Source: a virus. Taken from it: DNA of 64,000 nt. The notes beneath the pieces are model-generated. The model was not told where the DNA came from and did not search any database. It saw only the letters and a list, made by a program, of their open reading frames with translations. The stretch covers positions 134,046-198,045 of the IMG/VR virus record IMGVR_UViG_3300022562_002256; one strand, 5' to 3'. The position numbers were made by a program, and so were the translations under genes. Below, in pieces: positions 1 to 34,660 of the stretch (its first letter is position 1; every line of letters begins with the position of its first letter).

Positions 1-200
1 GCCCGGGTGGCCCAGTCGTATCGCCACAGCGCCTCCGACAGCGCCGATGCCCAATCTCCCGACTCGAAGTCAGCCGGTGATACCTCAGGGATCGGCGCTC
101 CCCAACACGTGTGGCATGGGACCGCCTCGGTGTTCATCCCGCACCCGCCGACGTCCTCGTCGCTGTACCCGCGCCCCTTGCATTCCCCGCACGCCTTCAC
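1..200 (-). CDS. small Cys-rich protein with DnaJ-like CxxCxGxG zinc finger (partial, runs off window)
   Basis: GTG at 200 overlaps NADAR stop (GTGA); translation MKACGECKGRG...CHTCWG. Confidence 0.5.
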   Translation of the reverse strand, partial: MKACGECKGRGYSDEDVGGCGMNTEAVPCHTCWGAPIPEVSPADFESGDWASALSEALWRYDWATR

Positions 201-802
201 GACACCACCCCGTAGCGCAGGATGCGCGCAATGCCGTCGGCGATGTATGTGTCGCACGTAGGACACCAGTGCTCTTGGCCCGAACACGGCTCGAGGTAGT
301 CGCCGTCGCACCCATCGAGGCAAGCACCCGGGTCGTGAAGCAAAATCGCCGCCACGGCGAGCTCGCGCCGCCTGCGCATGAGCAAGCGCCCGAGCATGTT
401 TTCGCCCGGCGCGGCGCAGTCGGTCCGGGCTCCGCACCGGCAGTCACCCCAAAAGTTGTCATGCCAGTCGTTGCCCTCGACGAGGATCTGATCTCCTGTG
501 GCGATCAGGCGCTGCGCGAGCGGCGAGCCTTGCTCGAACTTCGAGCGCAGGCAGTCGCGCATCACACCGACCTTGACCGCTTCCCAGTCGTGGCGGAGCG
601 GGAGCTTTCGCCCCTCGCGCTTGGCTTGTCCAGCGTTGAGGCTGCCGTAGCCGACCATGAATGGCTGCCTGAGCCTTGCCACAAGCGTCTTGGCCGCCTG
701 AAAGGCGTGCTCCACGCTGGGGTACTCTGCCCCCTCGAAAAACACACCGGTCTTGACGAAGTTCGACAAGAAGGCGTTGTCGCCCCGAAACGACTCGATC
801 AT
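197..802 (-). CDS. NADAR (YbiA/DUF1768) family ADP-ribosylhydrolase-like protein with Cys-rich C-terminal extension
   Basis: FLSNF, YPSVEHAFQAAK, W..VK..VM...LRSKF, L.ATG...LVEGN.W.D.FWG, GENMLGRLLM are NADAR family motifs. Confidence 0.9.
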   Translation of the reverse strand: MIESFRGDNAFLSNFVKTGVFFEGAEYPSVEHAFQAAKTLVARLRQPFMVGYGSLNAGQAKREGRKLPLRHDWEAVKVGVMRDCLRSKFEQGSPLAQRLIATGDQILVEGNDWHDNFWGDCRCGARTDCAAPGENMLGRLLMRRRRELAVAAILLHDPGACLDGCDGDYLEPCSGQEHWCPTCDTYIADGIARILRYGVVS

Positions 803-809
803 GTTCCAC

Positions 810-1070
810 CTACGCGCAATCATCCCCATGGCCCGAGCCCGGTTCCGTCGAGTCCTCCGGCGACCCGCCGTTTGCCCCCGCATACGCCTTATTCAAGGCG
901 TATGCTCGCTCATACTCGGGGTGCCCGGGACCGTATCCCGCTGGCTGATCGACGTGGGGCTTTTCACAGCGGCACCAGACAAAGTGACCGGCGATCCCAC
1001 ACGGGTCGCCAGCAGGATACGGGTTCGGGGGGCCGACGACACGAGCCATGGGCACAACAAATTTGGTCAC
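810..1070 (-). CDS. hypothetical protein
   Basis: GTG start with GAGGTG RBS, downstream of sigma54 motif at 1094-1109. Confidence 0.45.
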   Translation of the reverse strand: MTKFVVPMARVVGPPNPYPAGDPCGIAGHFVWCRCEKPHVDQPAGYGPGHPEYERAYALNKAYAGANGGSPEDSTEPGSGHGDDCA

Positions 1071-1093
1071 GGTATCACCTCAGCCTCGTTCCA

Positions 1094-1109
1094 TGCACAA
1101 ACCGTGCCG
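1094..1109 (-). promoter_or_regulatory. sigma54-type -24/-12 promoter motif
   Basis: CGGCACGGTTTGTGCA (GG-N10-GC), back-to-back with the motif at 1128. Confidence 0.6.
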
Positions 1110-1127
1110 CGACGGGGACAACGCCCC

Positions 1128-1143
1128 CGGCACGGCCGTTGCA
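1128..1143 (+). promoter_or_regulatory. sigma54-type promoter motif
   Basis: CGGCACGGCCGTTGCA; ATG 14 nt after the -12 C. Confidence 0.7.
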
Positions 1144-1155
1144 CGCTCCCGGGGC

Positions 1156-1974
1156 ATGACCACCGACACTCTCGCCGTCCGCGCCACCGCCCGAGAGCTC
1201 GTCGCCGTGTTTCAGGAGGCTGCCGCCACCGTGCGCACGTGTTTCGGCGCGCTGCATGCGGCTGAGGCGCGCCTCGCCGCCGCCTTCTCGATGGCGGATG
1301 GGTACGCGCGCATCCGGATCCCAGCGACCCGGTGCCACCACTCGGCCGAGTTCGACCGGGCTGAAGAGTCCATCGCCGAGATGGCCCGGGACGCGTGGCG
1401 CGCCATCGTCGACCGACTCGACCTGCGCCGCCTGCTGTCCGTGGCACGCTATGAGCAACTCCAGACCGAGTTGGAGAAGGGGGCGCTCCCCGAGCTGACC
1501 GAGGACGCTGTGGTCGCCTTCGTACGGCGCTACGTCGACCAGATCGAGGAGATGCACGACGAGGCTGTGGCCGAGGTGTTCGAGTTCCTGCGCCCCCGAA
1601 GTCTCGGGATGAAGCGCCTCAAGACCAACTCCGAGCTCGAGGTGCCAGCCAAGGTCATCCTGCGGTTGGTGGCGCGAGGTCCCATGGGGTACTGGCGGCT
1701 GCGTTATTGGAAGGTGGCACAAAACCTCATCGCCCTGGAAAACGTCCTCCACGCGCTTGATGGTCGTGGCATGGTGGCATCCAGCAGTCGGAGCGCCCTA
1801 CAAACCGCGATCGAGGAGACCACAACGGGGACCGGGGAGACCGACCTGTTCTCGTTTCGGTGCTGCGAGAACGGGAACCTTCACTTGCGCTTCAAGCGAC
1901 TCGACCTGCTCGCCCGGCTCAATGCAAAGGCGGGCGGCAAGCGGCTTCGGCCGCCGACAGCGCCCTGTGCGTAA
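1156..1974 (+). CDS. DUF4942 domain protein
   Basis: C-terminal GETDLFSFRCCENGNLHLRFKRLDLLARLN resembles the DUF4942 signature; AWRAIVDRLDL and VFEFLRP blocks also fit. Confidence 0.7.
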   Translation: MTTDTLAVRATARELVAVFQEAAATVRTCFGALHAAEARLAAAFSMADGYARIRIPATRCHHSAEFDRAEESIAEMARDAWRAIVDRLDLRRLLSVARYEQLQTELEKGALPELTEDAVVAFVRRYVDQIEEMHDEAVAEVFEFLRPRSLGMKRLKTNSELEVPAKVILRLVARGPMGYWRLRYWKVAQNLIALENVLHALDGRGMVASSSRSALQTAIEETTTGTGETDLFSFRCCENGNLHLRFKRLDLLARLNAKAGGKRLRPPTAPCA

Positions 1975-2021: not shown

Positions 2022-2783
2022 TCATGCCTCTGCACCGATCCGCACGACCGGCACCACGCACCGGGTCCGGGTCGCCTGGTGCCAATAGGGGGCGCGTGTC
2101 CCGTCCACACGCTCACACCACGACCCCGGTGCGAGCATGGCCGGGTCTGATATACCTCCGTCGCGCACCAAAGGGAGCGACCGCTGCGGCGCCCCCTTCC
2201 ACACCAGCGATCGGTCGGCGTCGAGCCGCGTGAACTCGTACCCAAGCACCGTCCCCAGCCCACGGTTGTGGTCCCGGCCGAGCCCGCCGATGAAGTCGAG
2301 CAGCGTGGCGACCTTGCCACGGTCGCCGAGCAGCGCGAAGTCCAGGTAGGGCGTGGTCAGCGTGGCCACGGGAATATTCAGGCTTTTCCCCCAGCCCCCC
2401 GAGATGCCCAACCGCTCGATCGCGTAGTGTTCCGCTCGCGCGCGCTTGCGGCGCCACCGTTTCGACTCGACGGCGCACCGTGCTGGCCAGCCCCACGACG
2501 CGTGCGCGATCGGCCAGCCCCCGATCACCGAGTCCGCCACGGGGATCGGGATGTCGATCTTCGGCGTGCCGGCCGGAATCTCGGCGAACACGTCGTCGGG
2601 CAGCCGGCCGGTGGCGTCAAGCACCACGGCGAATTGGATGGCGCCGTCGATGGTGATTGCGTCCCGTCCATCCCACGCAACCGGCGACGCCAGCCACACG
2701 CGCACCCGGAACGGCTCGACTCGGCTACAGCCCCACCGCGCGCGAGATCGGGTCACCCACGGGGGTTCGACCCAGCCGATCAC
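2022..2783 (-). CDS. csf3: type IV CRISPR-associated Csf3 (Cas5-group RAMP)
   Basis: N-terminal EPFRVRVWLASPV strand; GKSLNIPVATLTTPYLDF..LGD...V..LL..IGGLGRDHNRGLGTV Gly-rich loop; GTGA-coupled to csf2 stop. Confidence 0.8.
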   Translation of the reverse strand: MIGWVEPPWVTRSRARWGCSRVEPFRVRVWLASPVAWDGRDAITIDGAIQFAVVLDATGRLPDDVFAEIPAGTPKIDIPIPVADSVIGGWPIAHASWGWPARCAVESKRWRRKRARAEHYAIERLGISGGWGKSLNIPVATLTTPYLDFALLGDRGKVATLLDFIGGLGRDHNRGLGTVLGYEFTRLDADRSLVWKGAPQRSLPLVRDGGISDPAMLAPGSWCERVDGTRAPYWHQATRTRCVVPVVRIGAEA

Positions 2784-4339
2784 GACGCGGCACCCCCGTC
2801 GCCCTCGCGCCCGCTGCGGCGTCGTCGACCGGCCTTTACGGGCCCCTTGGCGGCGGGTGGGGCTACCCCCGCGTCGCGCCCGGTCGGCGCGGTTTTGGCG
2901 GCACTCTGGCGCCGGCCTGGCCGGTCCTCGAGCAACCACGCGCGCAGCTCATCCCGGTGTTCCGCCACCCACGCCTGGTACACGGTCGGTGGCGGCAGCG
3001 GTGGTGCACTCCCGCCCGGGACATAAGCGACGAACCCCACCGCACCGAGCCCCCGGGCGTTCGCGGCGCCGACAAACCCGTCCTGCTGGAATTCTACGAG
3101 CAGATCGGCCATGCACGCCCCGGCCACCTCGCTCACGCCGTCCAGGCCGATGAGCTGAAATCTGTGCACCAACTGCACACCGGGGATGAGCACCTCCGTG
3201 TTGACCAGCATCTGCACGCCCTTGCAGTCCTCGATGTCCCGGTGGGCGTGGTGCGTCAGAAGTCTGAGTTGCGTGAGTGTGTCGGCCGGCTTCAGCGACG
3301 CCGTGAATTCGGGCAGCGTCATCGCGGCGCCATCGCGCGTCTTGGGCTGCAAGAGCGCATGCACCATCCACGCGTTCTCGCGGCACAGCAGGATCACGTC
3401 ATGCACCCGGAGCAGCCCTCGCATGATCTGCCCATCAACAACCCCCGCGAACAAGTCCCACGCGGGGCATACCGCGCGAGCACGCCGCCGAACCGCCACG
3501 TCCACCGCATCGCCGTCCGCCCCCGCCTCAATGGTTCCGCCCGACAGCAGCGCGTGGGCCCGGGGCGCCGGCAAGTCCTGTGCGGTCAACCCGACAAGCT
3601 GCAGCATGCGCCCCATGATGATGTCACGCCAGCATCCGCGGACCGCGTTGCCCGACACCAGCGGCACGATCGCGATCTCGCCTGTAACGGGTGACACCAC
3701 GCGCTGTCGCCGAAACATGGTCACGTTGCCGCTCTTCTCGTCGTGACCATGAGCCATGGGGGCGACCAGCGTCCACACGGCGGTGTATGCCCGGGGTGTG
3801 AGCAGGTCACCTGGCACCTCTGCGGTCCACGTCTCGGCACTGGCGGAGGCATCGGCCCACGGGGTGAACAACGCCTCCTCTCCGTCGACCGGCGGCGCCG
3901 TTGCGAAGGTGGCGAACAGCGCGGGGCTCTCCGTCACCGCAAGCCGGAGCGCATCGAAATCAATCGCTTTGCACACCGCTGTCCAGGAGACGGCTGCCGT
4001 GGTCTCGTCCGCCTCGGGATGCTCAATCTCCAGCACGCCCGCCGGCACGAGCAACCGCGGGATGAGCACGTACACCGGCCGGGCCGTGATCTCCTTGCCT
4101 TCGTCGTTCTCAAAAGTCCCGCCCGTCTCATTTATGCTGAACCGCTGGCACAGCATCCGGGTGAACTCAAGCGTCGACCGCGCGCTGGTCACCATGGGCA
4201 CAAGGGCGTCGCGTAGTTCCTCGCTGATGTTGCGGCGGCGCCGCCGAGGAATGCCCTCCCAATCGACGCGGCGCCACAGTGCCCGGAGCAGGTAGGCCAT
4301 GAGTGCGGTCGCGGCATGAATCGCAGGCGGTGTCGTCAT
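2780..4339 (-). CDS. csf2: type IV Csf2 (Cas7) with N-terminal Cas11/small-subunit-like helical domain fused in frame
   Basis: TLVAPMAHG, GNVTMFRRQRV, VPLVSGNAVRG.WRD, LLSGG, P.WDLFAG, QMLVNTEVLIPG, FVGAANARGLGAV are Csf2 motifs; N-terminal ~170 aa is helical (LWRRVDW..LEFTRMLCQRF); GAGGA RBS before ATG 4339. Confidence 0.85.
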   Translation of the reverse strand: MTTPPAIHAATALMAYLLRALWRRVDWEGIPRRRRRNISEELRDALVPMVTSARSTLEFTRMLCQRFSINETGGTFENDEGKEITARPVYVLIPRLLVPAGVLEIEHPEADETTAAVSWTAVCKAIDFDALRLAVTESPALFATFATAPPVDGEEALFTPWADASASAETWTAEVPGDLLTPRAYTAVWTLVAPMAHGHDEKSGNVTMFRRQRVVSPVTGEIAIVPLVSGNAVRGCWRDIIMGRMLQLVGLTAQDLPAPRAHALLSGGTIEAGADGDAVDVAVRRRARAVCPAWDLFAGVVDGQIMRGLLRVHDVILLCRENAWMVHALLQPKTRDGAAMTLPEFTASLKPADTLTQLRLLTHHAHRDIEDCKGVQMLVNTEVLIPGVQLVHRFQLIGLDGVSEVAGACMADLLVEFQQDGFVGAANARGLGAVGFVAYVPGGSAPPLPPPTVYQAWVAEHRDELRAWLLEDRPGRRQSAAKTAPTGRDAGVAPPAAKGPVKAGRRRRSGREGDGGAAS

Positions 4340-4397
4340 TCGGTCGTGTCCTCTTCGTTCTGTCCGTGTTTCGTGGCGAGGTCGACCCGCCGCTTCT

Positions 4398-4426
4398 ATT
4401 GTAACACATCCCGCGACGGGTGTGAG
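4398..4426 (-). promoter_or_regulatory. sigma70-like promoter for the csf2-csf3 operon
   Basis: CTCACA-N17-TACAAT with extended -10 TG, ~60 nt upstream of csf2 ATG. Confidence 0.5.
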
Positions 4427-4446
4427 GCGGCTGCACACCGGCGCGA

Positions 4447-4462
4447 TGGCACGATGCATGCA
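4447..4462 (+). promoter_or_regulatory. sigma54-type promoter motif
   Basis: TGGCACGATGCATGCA upstream of ORF 4500 and the cysH-like gene. Confidence 0.65.
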
Positions 4463-4499
4463 TGTGGATGCGCCCGGGGGGGGGGGAGGACCAACCGCG

Positions 4500-4730
4500 A
4501 TGAGACGACGTGTCATTGTCGACCCGTACACGCCCGGTAGACACGTCAATGCGATGACCATCGACGATGACACGGGCAAGCGAATTTTCGTCTTCCCCCG
4601 CCCCGGCAGCGTGGTCGTAGGTGTCTGTGAGCGCAAGAAGGCAGCGAGCGTTCTCCTACGAGTCGAGGAGGTTGACGACCTCCTCGCCGCCCTGCGTGAC
4701 GCGAGCGCCGTGGCAGGAGGCAAACCGTGA
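4500..4730 (+). CDS. hypothetical protein
   Basis: GGAGGA RBS, 76 aa, follows a G11 tract. Confidence 0.6.
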   Translation: MRRRVIVDPYTPGRHVNAMTIDDDTGKRIFVFPRPGSVVVGVCERKKAASVLLRVEEVDDLLAALRDASAVAGGKP

Positions 4731-4874
4731 CGCGCGCGAGGGTCGCCGTCCCTGACGCGCTGGGACGCCAACGATGGTAAGCGTCTTCTAGACGGGCAGT
4801 CCGTCGCGTGGACAGCAAAACCATGGGTCTGGGCGCTGACATACTCGGTGGTCCGATGACGTCGGATGCGGGGC

Positions 4875-5834
4875 ATGGCTGACCGCTCCCGGTTCGAGTC
4901 GACGTGCCCGTGCCCCGCGTGCGGCGGGTGCGCATGCCGGTGGCTGCTGCGTATGCCCGCTACCGTGTGCCAGTCTGTGCCACGATGTGCCTGCTCACGA
5001 GGGTTGGCTGCCGACGAGCCTGTCCTGTGGCCCACCGACGTCGCTGCGTGGGCCCGGTGGATGGCCGCGGCCCGCATCCATGCCCGCTCGGTGGCTCACC
5101 GCCGCGTTGTCGAGCAGGCACGGCGGGCGGTGGACCAGGCGCTTGTCGGCGCGTCGACGGCATGCGTGATGGTGAGCGCAGGAAAGGACTCGACCATCCT
5201 CGCGCACGTGGTGACGGCGTTGATGGGGCGGCACGACGTGACGTTGGTGTCCGAAAAAGATGACCTCGACTACCCGGGGGAGGAGGAGTACCTGCGGCTC
5301 CTCGCCGCGGAGTGGGGGGCAACGCTCCGCGTCGTACGGCCGCGCGTATCTCCAGCCGAATGGATTCGATCGCGAGGAGCCACACGCGCTCACCGGGCCG
5401 CGGATGACATCCACTCACGCGCGGCTGGGCTGAGCAAGGCGTGCTTTTATCGCGTGGTCGAGGCGGTCAACGCCGAGTACGATGTCGTGATGCTCGGTCT
5501 CCGTGCGCAGGAGAGCACGGTTCGACGAATCGTAAGGCACAGGCGGGGGCTGGTCTACACGCTCGCGTCGGGGCAGCGCCGGGCCAACCCGCTGTTCGAT
5601 TGGCGAGGGCTTGACCTCTACGCCTACGCCGAGAGCCACAGCATCCCCCTGCTGCCGCTCTATCGGTGCATCGCGTTCATGCACGAGCGCCGGCCGTGGG
5701 ACGTGCGTAAGGCGTGGTGGCTCCCCGGGGGCCATTCTACACGCAACGGCGGAGTCGCGTGGCTCAAGCACTACTTCCCCACACTGTATGATCAACTTTG
5801 CGAATGGATCCCAGGCGCGCCCGCCTATCGGTGA
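4875..5834 (+). CDS. cysH: CysH-like (PAPS reductase / PP-loop) protein of the type IV-B-associated kind, with Cys-rich N-terminal extension
   Basis: SAGKDS PP-loop, KDDLDYPGE, GLRAQES..RR, ANPLFDW...DLYAY....IPLLPLY; no C-terminal ECGLH of true CysH; adjacent to csf2/csf3. Confidence 0.85.
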   Translation: MADRSRFESTCPCPACGGCACRWLLRMPATVCQSVPRCACSRGLAADEPVLWPTDVAAWARWMAAARIHARSVAHRRVVEQARRAVDQALVGASTACVMVSAGKDSTILAHVVTALMGRHDVTLVSEKDDLDYPGEEEYLRLLAAEWGATLRVVRPRVSPAEWIRSRGATRAHRAADDIHSRAAGLSKACFYRVVEAVNAEYDVVMLGLRAQESTVRRIVRHRRGLVYTLASGQRRANPLFDWRGLDLYAYAESHSIPLLPLYRCIAFMHERRPWDVRKAWWLPGGHSTRNGGVAWLKHYFPTLYDQLCEWIPGAPAYR

Positions 5835-33565: not shown

Positions 33566-34660
33566 TCAAGTCTCATCATCAAACAGCTTGAGCTGCGTCC
33601 CCTTCGGAGGAAGCGGCTTGCTCGGCTTCACCGCCGATGGCTCGCTCTGCGCTGTCTTCTCGGGATGAGCAGCCGCCCACGCGAAGAGATCACCCTGCCG
33701 TTCGGCCATCGCCGCAGGCGTCGGAGCGGGCTTGCTCCCCGGCGTAGGGACGGCACGAAGCCAGACGCCGGTGCTCGTCTTCCGCGAGGCACCTGGCGCG
33801 CCTGGACGCGGCGTGAGGGGTTGCGGACTCGGAGCTTCCCCTTCGGGTTCGGACAGGCACGCCGCGACGAACTCCTCAGCGCTCCACACGTGGTCCGTGA
33901 TGCCCGATTGCATCGCGGGGGTCACGCGCAGGGCCATGTGCACACGACAGAAGTTGAAGAAGCCTACGTACGCGCTGATCGAGGCGCGGTGATGCGCGAG
34001 CGTCTTGGACGCGCCCGTGCCTCTCCGGACGAGGCGCCGTAGCTGCGTCCTGAACGAGAGGTTGAGCCGCTCCGCGTGCGACGTGGAGCACTCGTCCAGG
34101 TTCGGCGCTCCCCAGATCGTGCGCTTCGTCATGCCGGGCCCGTCGCTCTTCAGACGACCGCGCTTGCCGCCGTTGAAGCTCTTGACGACCTGCGCATAGT
34201 CGATGTCGGTGAACGCCGCTCCGACAGCTCGGGGGTAGCCGGGGTACGCGTCCGTCGACAGCACGGGGATCGTGACCAGCCTCGCTCGGAGGTCCGCGAG
34301 GAACGCGTCCGTGGTCTCTTGGGTGCGCTTACCGACGCGGTACGACACGACGAGCTTCGCGGTCTTGGCGCTCGCGAGGTACACCCACTGCTCGCCGATC
34401 GCGTCGTCATGCACCTCGGGGAGGTTCTTCTCCCTCACCTTGACGTAGCTGTGCAGCTCGTCCCCTTCGATGTGCTCGATGCTCAAGCCGCGGACGAGGC
34501 GGTCATGAACACGGTCGTACCCCTGTCCGATCGCGAGCAAGAGGCGCAGGACCGTGGGTTGACTGACGTCGGTCAACCTCGATGCGGCACGCACCCCCGC
34601 CCCCTCCATGAGGTGCGCAAAGACCTCGGCTTGACGCGACAGCGGAAGCACGTTCGCCAT
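33566..34660 (-). CDS. IS1-family DDE transposase
   Basis: N-terminal HTH (EGAGVRAASRLTDVSQPTVLRLL), DELHSYV, YRVGKRT, STD, STS.AER.NL..R..LRR, TPAM..G.TD.VW. Confidence 0.92.
   Translation of the reverse strand: MANVLPLSRQAEVFAHLMEGAGVRAASRLTDVSQPTVLRLLLAIGQGYDRVHDRLVRGLSIEHIEGDELHSYVKVREKNLPEVHDDAIGEQWVYLASAKTAKLVVSYRVGKRTQETTDAFLADLRARLVTIPVLSTDAYPGYPRAVGAAFTDIDYAQVVKSFNGGKRGRLKSDGPGMTKRTIWGAPNLDECSTSHAERLNLSFRTQLRRLVRRGTGASKTLAHHRASISAYVGFFNFCRVHMALRVTPAMQSGITDHVWSAEEFVAACLSEPEGEAPSPQPLTPRPGAPGASRKTSTGVWLRAVPTPGSKPAPTPAAMAERQGDLFAWAAAHPEKTAQSEPSAVKPSKPLPPKGTQLKLFDDET

Follow-up and report, generated by a model that had tools for sequence, protein, structure and literature searches.

What can a CRISPR-Cas effector do for a phage that carries no CRISPR array, and which of its subunits can such an effector lose? 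The question is raised by a locus at positions 2022–5834 of a 64,000-nucleotide stretch of viral DNA (here called the window), which forms the last 64 kb of the single 198,045-bp IMG/VR virus record IMGVR_UViG_3300022562_002256. An earlier note, made from the letters alone, had classed the locus as phage-borne, array-less and type IV-B-like, with csf2, csf3 and a cysH-like gene, and comparisons by hidden Markov model (HMM), profile and fold support that class. We conclude with high confidence that the locus derives by reduction from a type IV-B CRISPR-Cas effector and lies in a DNA-modification region of the phage; its Csf2 very probably carries the small subunit, Cas11, as an N-terminal domain, and the large subunit, Csf1, has been lost. 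For type IV-B, a subtype of unsolved function, the locus offers a natural minimal set.

Subunits of the effector

Because the window is GC-rich (66%), it contains many long spurious open reading frames (ORFs); a codon-position score selects three real genes at the locus (Table 1). For csf2 and csf3 the PADLOC models were decisive: residues 188–469 of the Csf2 protein matched typeIV_Cas7 (E = 1.9e-42) and residues 22–247 of Csf3 matched the typeIV_Cas5 model Csf3_0_IV (E = 2.1e-24), which bears out the calls first made from the letters. NCBIfam matches to both genes were below threshold (for Csf3, TIGR03116 at 9.8e-06, under its cut-off), and Pfam gave no match to the Cas genes. A profile of 48 homologues found the Csf2 of the type IV-B complex 7JHY in the PDB (1.7e-19), and the fold of the Cas7 domain matched chain 7jhy_e with Z = 18.8 and a root-mean-square deviation (rmsd) of 2.8 over 227 of 228 residues. 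Its best fold match was the type IV-A1 chain 8rc3_A (Z = 19.8, VIA-align), and in both VIA-align and Foldseek the type IV Csf2 structures came first, followed by type III Csm3. The Csf3 profile matched exclusively Csf3 chains in the PDB (8rc3_F, 3.8e-13; 7xfz_B, 3.2e-11), and Csf3 is 34–61% identical over ∼240 amino acids (aa) to the product of the gene that follows the fused cas7 at each of 16 related loci. Identity to the Csf2 of Mycobacterium sp. JS623 is ∼29%, and a tblastn search of the whole fusion against 50,697 GenBank phage records gave no match.

The leftward operon with a Csf2/Cas7 gene proposed in the earlier note is present. Read as one giant protein, the 765-aa ORF at 2780–5077 is over-extended, because homologues start at ATG 4339 and have no counterpart to its first 246 residues, which are Arg/Pro/His-rich junk. 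This ATG is preceded by a Shine-Dalgarno-like motif, AGAGGA, and the AlphaFold model of the resulting protein has a predicted local distance difference test score (pLDDT) of 87.9 and a predicted template modelling score of 0.82; residues 476–519 are a basic tail of low confidence. The GTG start of csf3 overlaps the stop of this gene by 4 nt, and the two genes are translationally coupled.

No Cas11 had been listed in the locus. We find one fused to the N-terminus of Csf2, where the first 178 residues are, with little doubt, a Cas11 domain; the small subunit expected of type IV-B is thus present, although not as a separate gene. When the domain, folded alone (pLDDT 87.5), was compared with 48,161 PDB chains, the sole match at Z ≥5 was 7jhy_h (Z = 8.8, rmsd 3.6, 111 aa), which is the Csf4/Cas11 chain of 7JHY, and the second-best chain reached Z = 4.2. 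In hhalign the domain aligned with ORFs directly upstream of unfused csf2 in viral and plasmid loci (probability 88%, E = 3.2e-06). Two PADLOC typeIV_Cas11 HMMs matched it (E = 0.0036 and 0.0065), a six-frame scan of the whole genome with the PADLOC Cas11 HMM matched this site only, and the weak matches of the Cas11 HMMs cluster on ORFs in the Cas11 position of unfused loci.

Several observations weigh against this assignment and would suit a helical/beta domain unrelated to Cas11, for example one that stands in for Csf1 or onto which accessory enzymes dock. The sequence signal is weak (E ∼0.003); Foldseek found nothing in the PDB at E ≤0.001 (its top rows were MutS, with a probability of at most 0.2); the ESM Atlas gave no usable match to residues 1–185 (template modelling score ≤0.35); a Z of 8.8 for a largely helical domain is moderate when taken alone; and the domain carries a four-strand beta insert that is foreign to classical Cas11. 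However, the shorter family members are without the insert. The lone standout among all the chains compared is the type IV-B Cas11 itself, the lower rows include small type I Cascade chains that are possibly Cas11 (their subunit identity is unchecked), the profile–profile match is to ORFs in the very position where the weak HMM matches also fall, and relatives have no separate cas11 gene between csf1 and the fused gene. We therefore regard an unrelated domain as very unlikely.

The fusion is shared with a set of relatives. It has at least 76 database homologues, all but one of which (303 aa) are 434–531 aa long, and this near-uniform length indicates that the N-terminal extension is conserved. 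Csf2 relatives occur in 79 IMG/VR loci, 12 of them fused, and in a tree of the Cas7 domain only, the fused rows lie on one side of a branch (support of 96 in the Shimodaira–Hasegawa-like approximate likelihood ratio test) with the window nested inside. The cas11::csf2 fusion arose once, in one phage clade, and we found no description of it in the literature searched. Identity to the clade is 30–59% for the fusion (32–55% for the viral loci) and 28–55% for the CysH-like protein. Type III-E Cas7-11 (gRAMP) likewise has Cas11 covalently joined to Cas7, but the likeness is one of analogy only: Cas7-11 is a single-protein effector with several Cas7 domains, an array and its own processing of CRISPR RNA (crRNA), whereas the window protein has one Cas7 per chain, must still polymerise and is accompanied by no array, and so does not belong to that type. 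The fixed 1:1 ratio of Cas11 to Cas7 nevertheless parallels the type III-E fusions and should ease reconstitution.

Table 1. Features of the csf locus, in window coordinates
Feature	Position	Strand	Details
csf3 (Cas5 of type IV)	2022..2783	-	253 aa; GTG start; PADLOC typeIV_Cas5
cas11::csf2 fusion gene	2780..4339	-	519 aa; ATG 4339; placed by alignment of homologues
Csf2 (Cas7) repeat-associated mysterious protein (RAMP) domain	2915..3793	-	fusion residues 183-475; PADLOC, profile, fold
Cas11 (small subunit) domain, very probable	3806..4339	-	fusion residues 1-178; fold, hhalign, PADLOC
Sigma-54-type promoter-like motif TGGCACGATGCATGC	4447..4461	+	divergent intergenic region; toward small ORF and cysH
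Putative small ORF	4500..4730	+	76 aa; GGAGG and poly-G run upstream
cysH-like gene of the PP-loop ATP pyrophosphatase family (CasCysH-like)	5004..5834	+	276 aa from the most likely start, TTG 5004; PAPS_reduct

Loss of csf1 and the state of the remaining genes

The carrier is a tailed phage whose 198-kb genome is complete, with a CheckV completeness of 100% and direct terminal repeats of 144 bp, and absences could thus be assessed over the entire genome. The lack of an array, cas6 and cas1 that had been reported for 64 kb holds across all 198,045 bp: no CRISPR-like repeats were present, not even as pairs, and Cas6, Cas1 and CasDinG were not found. The locus therefore resembles type IV-B in having no array, Cas6, adaptation module or helicase, and the complete genome holds no array, cas6 and csf1 elsewhere that would make it an ordinary split system, as the earlier note had considered. 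Searches for Csf1 across the whole genome gave nothing with TIGR03114 and nothing at E up to 1 with PADLOC Csf1_0_IV; phmmer with two Csf1 proteins reached at best E = 0.0048 (13.8 bits), a chance-level match elsewhere in the genome; and an iterated Csf1 HMM, which recovers csf1 from each of the 16 distinct fused relatives, found nothing here. No remnant of csf1 was seen in any frame of the 198-kb genome.

These fused relatives comprise 16 distinct sampled loci, or 17 counting one duplicate (in our numbering L003, L005–L007 and L009–L020), and csf1 lies directly upstream of the fusion in every one of the 16 (E = 4.5e-34 to 8.9e-62), four of them confirmed as PADLOC typeIV_Cas8 (4e-09 to 2e-13). 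Because all sampled relatives have the gene in this position, its absence from the window is a secondary loss. The description of the locus as a minimal version is accurate in that the locus is reduced, but the subunit that is missing is Csf1, present in 16 of 16 relatives, and not Cas11. The relatives share with the window a homologous fusion, csf3, CysH-like gene and cassette of modification genes, but they have csf1 upstream and a single co-directional operon, whereas the present phage has no csf1, its cassette is 8 kb distant and its cysH has the opposite orientation.

The type IV-B system of Mycobacterium sp. JS623 (plasmid pMYCSM02, complex 7JHY) resembles the locus in its Csf2, Csf3 and Cas11, which are homologous in sequence and fold, and in its adjoining CysH-like gene, its carriage on a mobile element and the same set of absent modules. 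It differs in that the window has a fused Cas11, no Csf1 genome-wide and a divergent cysH, and in that its carrier is an actinobacterial plasmid and not a 198-kb phage. Since Csf1, the small Cas8-like large subunit that is the signature of type IV, is absent while Csf2, Csf3, Cas11, the cysH-like gene and the lack of array, Cas6 and helicase agree with IV-B, we class the locus as a variant derived from IV-B rather than a canonical member. Carriage of type IV-B by phages is not new, given the 79 IMG/VR loci and earlier descriptions (PMC10848311, PMC7038947), and the picture of phages carrying such modules is unchanged. The window stands apart in having lost csf1 and in its split layout, within a complete 198-kb phage and with signs that selection continues.

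Another account of this layout would be decay, in which csf1 was lost and the operon broken up by a rearrangement, leaving genes that no longer function as a system. The window is indeed the sole csf1-less member of the 17 sampled in the fused clade, and the distant cassette and inverted cysH fit such a rearrangement. However, all three reading frames are intact and every family-invariant residue is kept. Furthermore, pieces from the sediment metagenome of another study together cover the whole stretch at roughly 94–99% identity. Its contigs span the start of cas11::csf2, the intergenic region and cysH, which shows that the layout without csf1 did not arise by misassembly of a single sample. 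Among the differences listed for the two Cas genes of this variant strain, 23 of 29 fall at third codon positions (p = 5e-07) and 6 residues change. This count draws on just 40 listed of 403 differences, which weakens it as support for a functional module and makes it an indication rather than an estimate of the ratio of nonsynonymous to synonymous change. Judged from these comparisons, the two Cas genes look selected, and a decaying remnant is improbable. That Cas11::Cas7, Cas5 and the CysH-like protein appear to be kept by selection without Csf1 suggests that the large subunit is dispensable for the role of the system, although its loss could also mean that the original function was lost.

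The CysH-like protein, the modification cassette and possible functions

The divergent CysH-like PP-loop gene of the earlier note was confirmed by Pfam PAPS_reduct (PF01507, E = 2.6e-09; 37.8 bits against a threshold of 22.5). Its frame is open from ATG 4866, and alignment with relatives makes TTG 5004 the most likely start. By phmmer the protein matched the CysH of the Rhodovastum IV-B plasmid (9.3e-15) and that of JS623 (6.6e-08), and it aligns with both; the PP-loop S-x-G-K-D-S (here SAGKDS) and a G-x-R-x-x-E-S motif are invariant in the alignment, while no conserved C-terminal motif with a catalytic Cys is present. The nearest solved structures are phosphoadenosine phosphosulfate (PAPS) reductases and CysD. 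Published CasCysH proteins also lack the catalytic Cys, and adenylation of complex-bound nucleic acid has been proposed as their activity (Taylor et al., PMC8175902); with its PP-loop kept and no C-terminal Cys motif, the window protein matches them, and the locus thus has the adjoining cysH-like gene typical of type IV-B.

Linkage to cysH is a general property of these loci, found in 15 of 16 fused and 54 of 70 unfused ones. In the fused relatives L005 and L007 the operon reads csf1, cas11::csf2, csf3, a small methyltransferase, a 293-aa gene (gB), an IbrA-like gene (PAPS_reduct+DUF3440), a ParB-like gene and cysH; L009 and L010 have the same order with a gap of 1–2 kb after csf3. Counting IbrA-like genes by their DUF3440 part alone, since the PAPS_reduct part cross-matches CysH, we found this part together with a ParB-like gene in 9 of 15 distinct fused loci versus 8 of 70 unfused ones, and the Rhodovastum plasmid has ParB and DUF3440 genes beside its locus. 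In the present phage the homologous cassette lies outside the window, at 124023–127854 (minus strand) of the genome, 8 kb before the Cas genes. It contains an IbrA/IbrB-type pair, namely a PAPS_reduct+DUF3440 gene at 124649–125791 (PF01507 and PF11922, both above cut-off) adjoining a gene for a 209-aa ParB-like protein, which gives weak ParB HMM matches and is 38% identical to the Rhodovastum protein with a ParB N-terminal domain. The IbrA-like gene also gives weak DndC HMM matches, and the pair presumably resembles DndC/DndB of DNA phosphorothioation; we know of no chemistry assigned to the IbrA/ParB-like pair. The cassette is part of a DNA-modification island (genome 120931–132347, our L008, plus window 1093–1974) with a C5 cytosine methyltransferase, a small N4/N6-type methyltransferase, the IbrA-like/ParB-like pair and a Dam-type D12 methyltransferase. 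The gene at window 1093–1974 is a DUF4942 gene, convergent with csf3.

A ∼90-aa domain with an F-I-T-P-H-A-V-R-R-Y-R motif and no Pfam match recurs around type IV-B loci: here it is a stand-alone gene heading the methyltransferase/IbrA cassette (genome 127851–128216, minus strand; L008:11852–12217), on the Rhodovastum plasmid it lies between csf3 and cysH, and in L003 two copies stand at the C-terminal end of an 863-aa HNH protein (sites at L003:9988–12894, L007:5639–6184, L011:14101–14445, L002:5905–6876 and L088:464–1645). Accessory genes directly after csf3 differ among relatives of the fused clade, encoding that 863-aa HNH-domain protein in L003 (10306–12897) and a 480-aa protein with a weak Cas6 C-terminal match in L006 (9291–10733).

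How such a complex might work can be sketched from the JS623 complex, a Csf2 filament with a minor filament of Cas11 on heterogeneous RNA (PMC7937560). By homology with it, the Cas7 domains would polymerise along RNA into a helical filament capped at the 5′ end by Csf3, and the covalent tether would supply the Cas11 minor filament at 1:1, which may free assembly from the large subunit. Because the phage has no array and no Cas6, the bound RNA should not be a canonical crRNA; the candidates are a transcript of phage or host origin and a borrowed guide. The filament may then be a nucleic-acid-binding platform for the CysH-like protein as an adenylate-forming enzyme, and would probably also work with the methyltransferase/IbrA-like/ParB-like cassette; the likely outcome would be nucleic acid modified in early infection, giving protection from host restriction or aiding host takeover. 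The modification reading is favoured by the cysH linkage and by the cassette of modification enzymes in relatives, and the recurrence of this cassette points toward nucleic-acid modification rather than interference. Taken as a whole, a reduced IV-B module with such a platform role is the explanation that we find somewhat better than even; the platform mechanism on its own is a tentative proposal, short of an even chance. It would be bolder still, and we hold it doubtful, to say that a tethered Cas11-Cas7 filament without a large subunit is an RNA-templated platform that brings both the PP-loop adenylating enzyme and the methyltransferase/IbrA/ParB cassette to nucleic acid. If it were true, type IV-B systems would be RNA-scaffolded or RNA-guided nucleic-acid modification machines used by phages against host restriction, and this csf1-less phage would define their minimal working core. 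Against the involvement of the cassette, its genes stand here outside the Cas operon, with cysH on the other strand, and the linkage is drawn from homologous genes in relatives, where the common gene order could be due in part to shared ancestry.

A crRNA or small-RNA sink and a CysH-coupled modifying complex are both standing hypotheses in the literature (PMC8175902), and the former would have the filament soak up host crRNAs or small guides regardless of sequence and thereby dampen RNA-guided defence in the host, with CysH an accessory or unrelated. A phage-borne locus without array or Cas6 is consistent with such a sponge, as are the binding of heterogeneous RNA, and not of co-expressed crRNA, by the JS623 complex (PMC7937560) and the 1:1 tether without a large subunit, which suits a non-targeting RNA binder. 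The sponge, however, leaves unexplained both the near-universal linkage to cysH and the modification enzymes encoded in the same operon in relatives, and we consider it unlikely, although less so than the alternatives of decay or of an unrelated N-terminal domain.

The complex could also load crRNAs from an array of the host or a co-resident element and repress or mark the matching DNA or RNA of competing elements, in the manner of type IV-A transcriptional interference. Cas7, Cas5 and Cas11 have homologues in effectors that are loaded with guides, and type IV-A2, a variant of IV-A, is a precedent for a type IV effector considered to have lost Csf1 while retaining CRISPR-Cas function (PMC7038947). 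Type IV-A2, however, is plasmid-borne, has DinG, Cas6 and an array and is without Cas11, unlike the window locus. A few viral unfused loci have two-repeat candidates near their csf genes: repeat pairs of 14–20 nt, spaced by 60–71 nt, at L053:5843, L031:10393, L021:7683 and L067:5608 are possible two-repeat mini-arrays similar to one reported for Fuxivirus. The complete genome of the present phage has no Cas6, repeat or mini-array and no Csf1 for recognition of DNA and its protospacer-adjacent motif, and co-expressed crRNAs failed to enter the JS623 complex (PMC7937560). Borrowed guides therefore seem improbable, and a modification platform remains the reading that we prefer.

Intergenic region and phage context

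Between the two divergent transcription units lies the sigma-54-type motif, a putative promoter. The window contains 29 copies of the pattern YGGCAY-N6-TGC, whereas shuffles predict 5.5, with sites including 4447, 6069, 7000, 8249, 23600 and 43588; no promoter was identified for the leftward cas11::csf2–csf3 pair. The small ORF downstream of the motif occupies, on the opposite strand, the place of csf1 in relatives. It has no homologue in related loci, its sole match in family searches is at chance level (NCBIfam dCTP deaminase, E = 0.014), and it may not be a real gene. A run of ∼11 G at 4477–4487, just upstream of its GGAGG, is 3 bases shorter in the variant strain of the other study.

The surrounding genes are those of a phage, as had been noted, and include a Mu-type portal and protease, a major head protein and a tail sheath. 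The label Mu-like, however, applies to the head module only and was rejected for the whole genome, which is 198 kb long with terminal repeats. A search of the whole window with Rfam at gathering thresholds gave no match. The source sample is marine sediment. In a collection of species genomes, fused-type matches occurred only in metagenome-assembled genomes of a Sorangium sp. (L088) and a deltaproteobacterium (L089), and these matches, the GC content and the sigma-54-type promoters together hint at a host in the Myxococcota. Between the early and structural genes, an IS1-family DDE transposase gene lies at 33566–34660 (minus strand; PF03400, 6.4e-09). Near the start of the window, a gene at 197–829 (minus strand) encodes a 210-aa protein that matches phrog_1017 (3.5e-35) and the PADLOC candidate defence protein PDC-M42C (3.4e-09).

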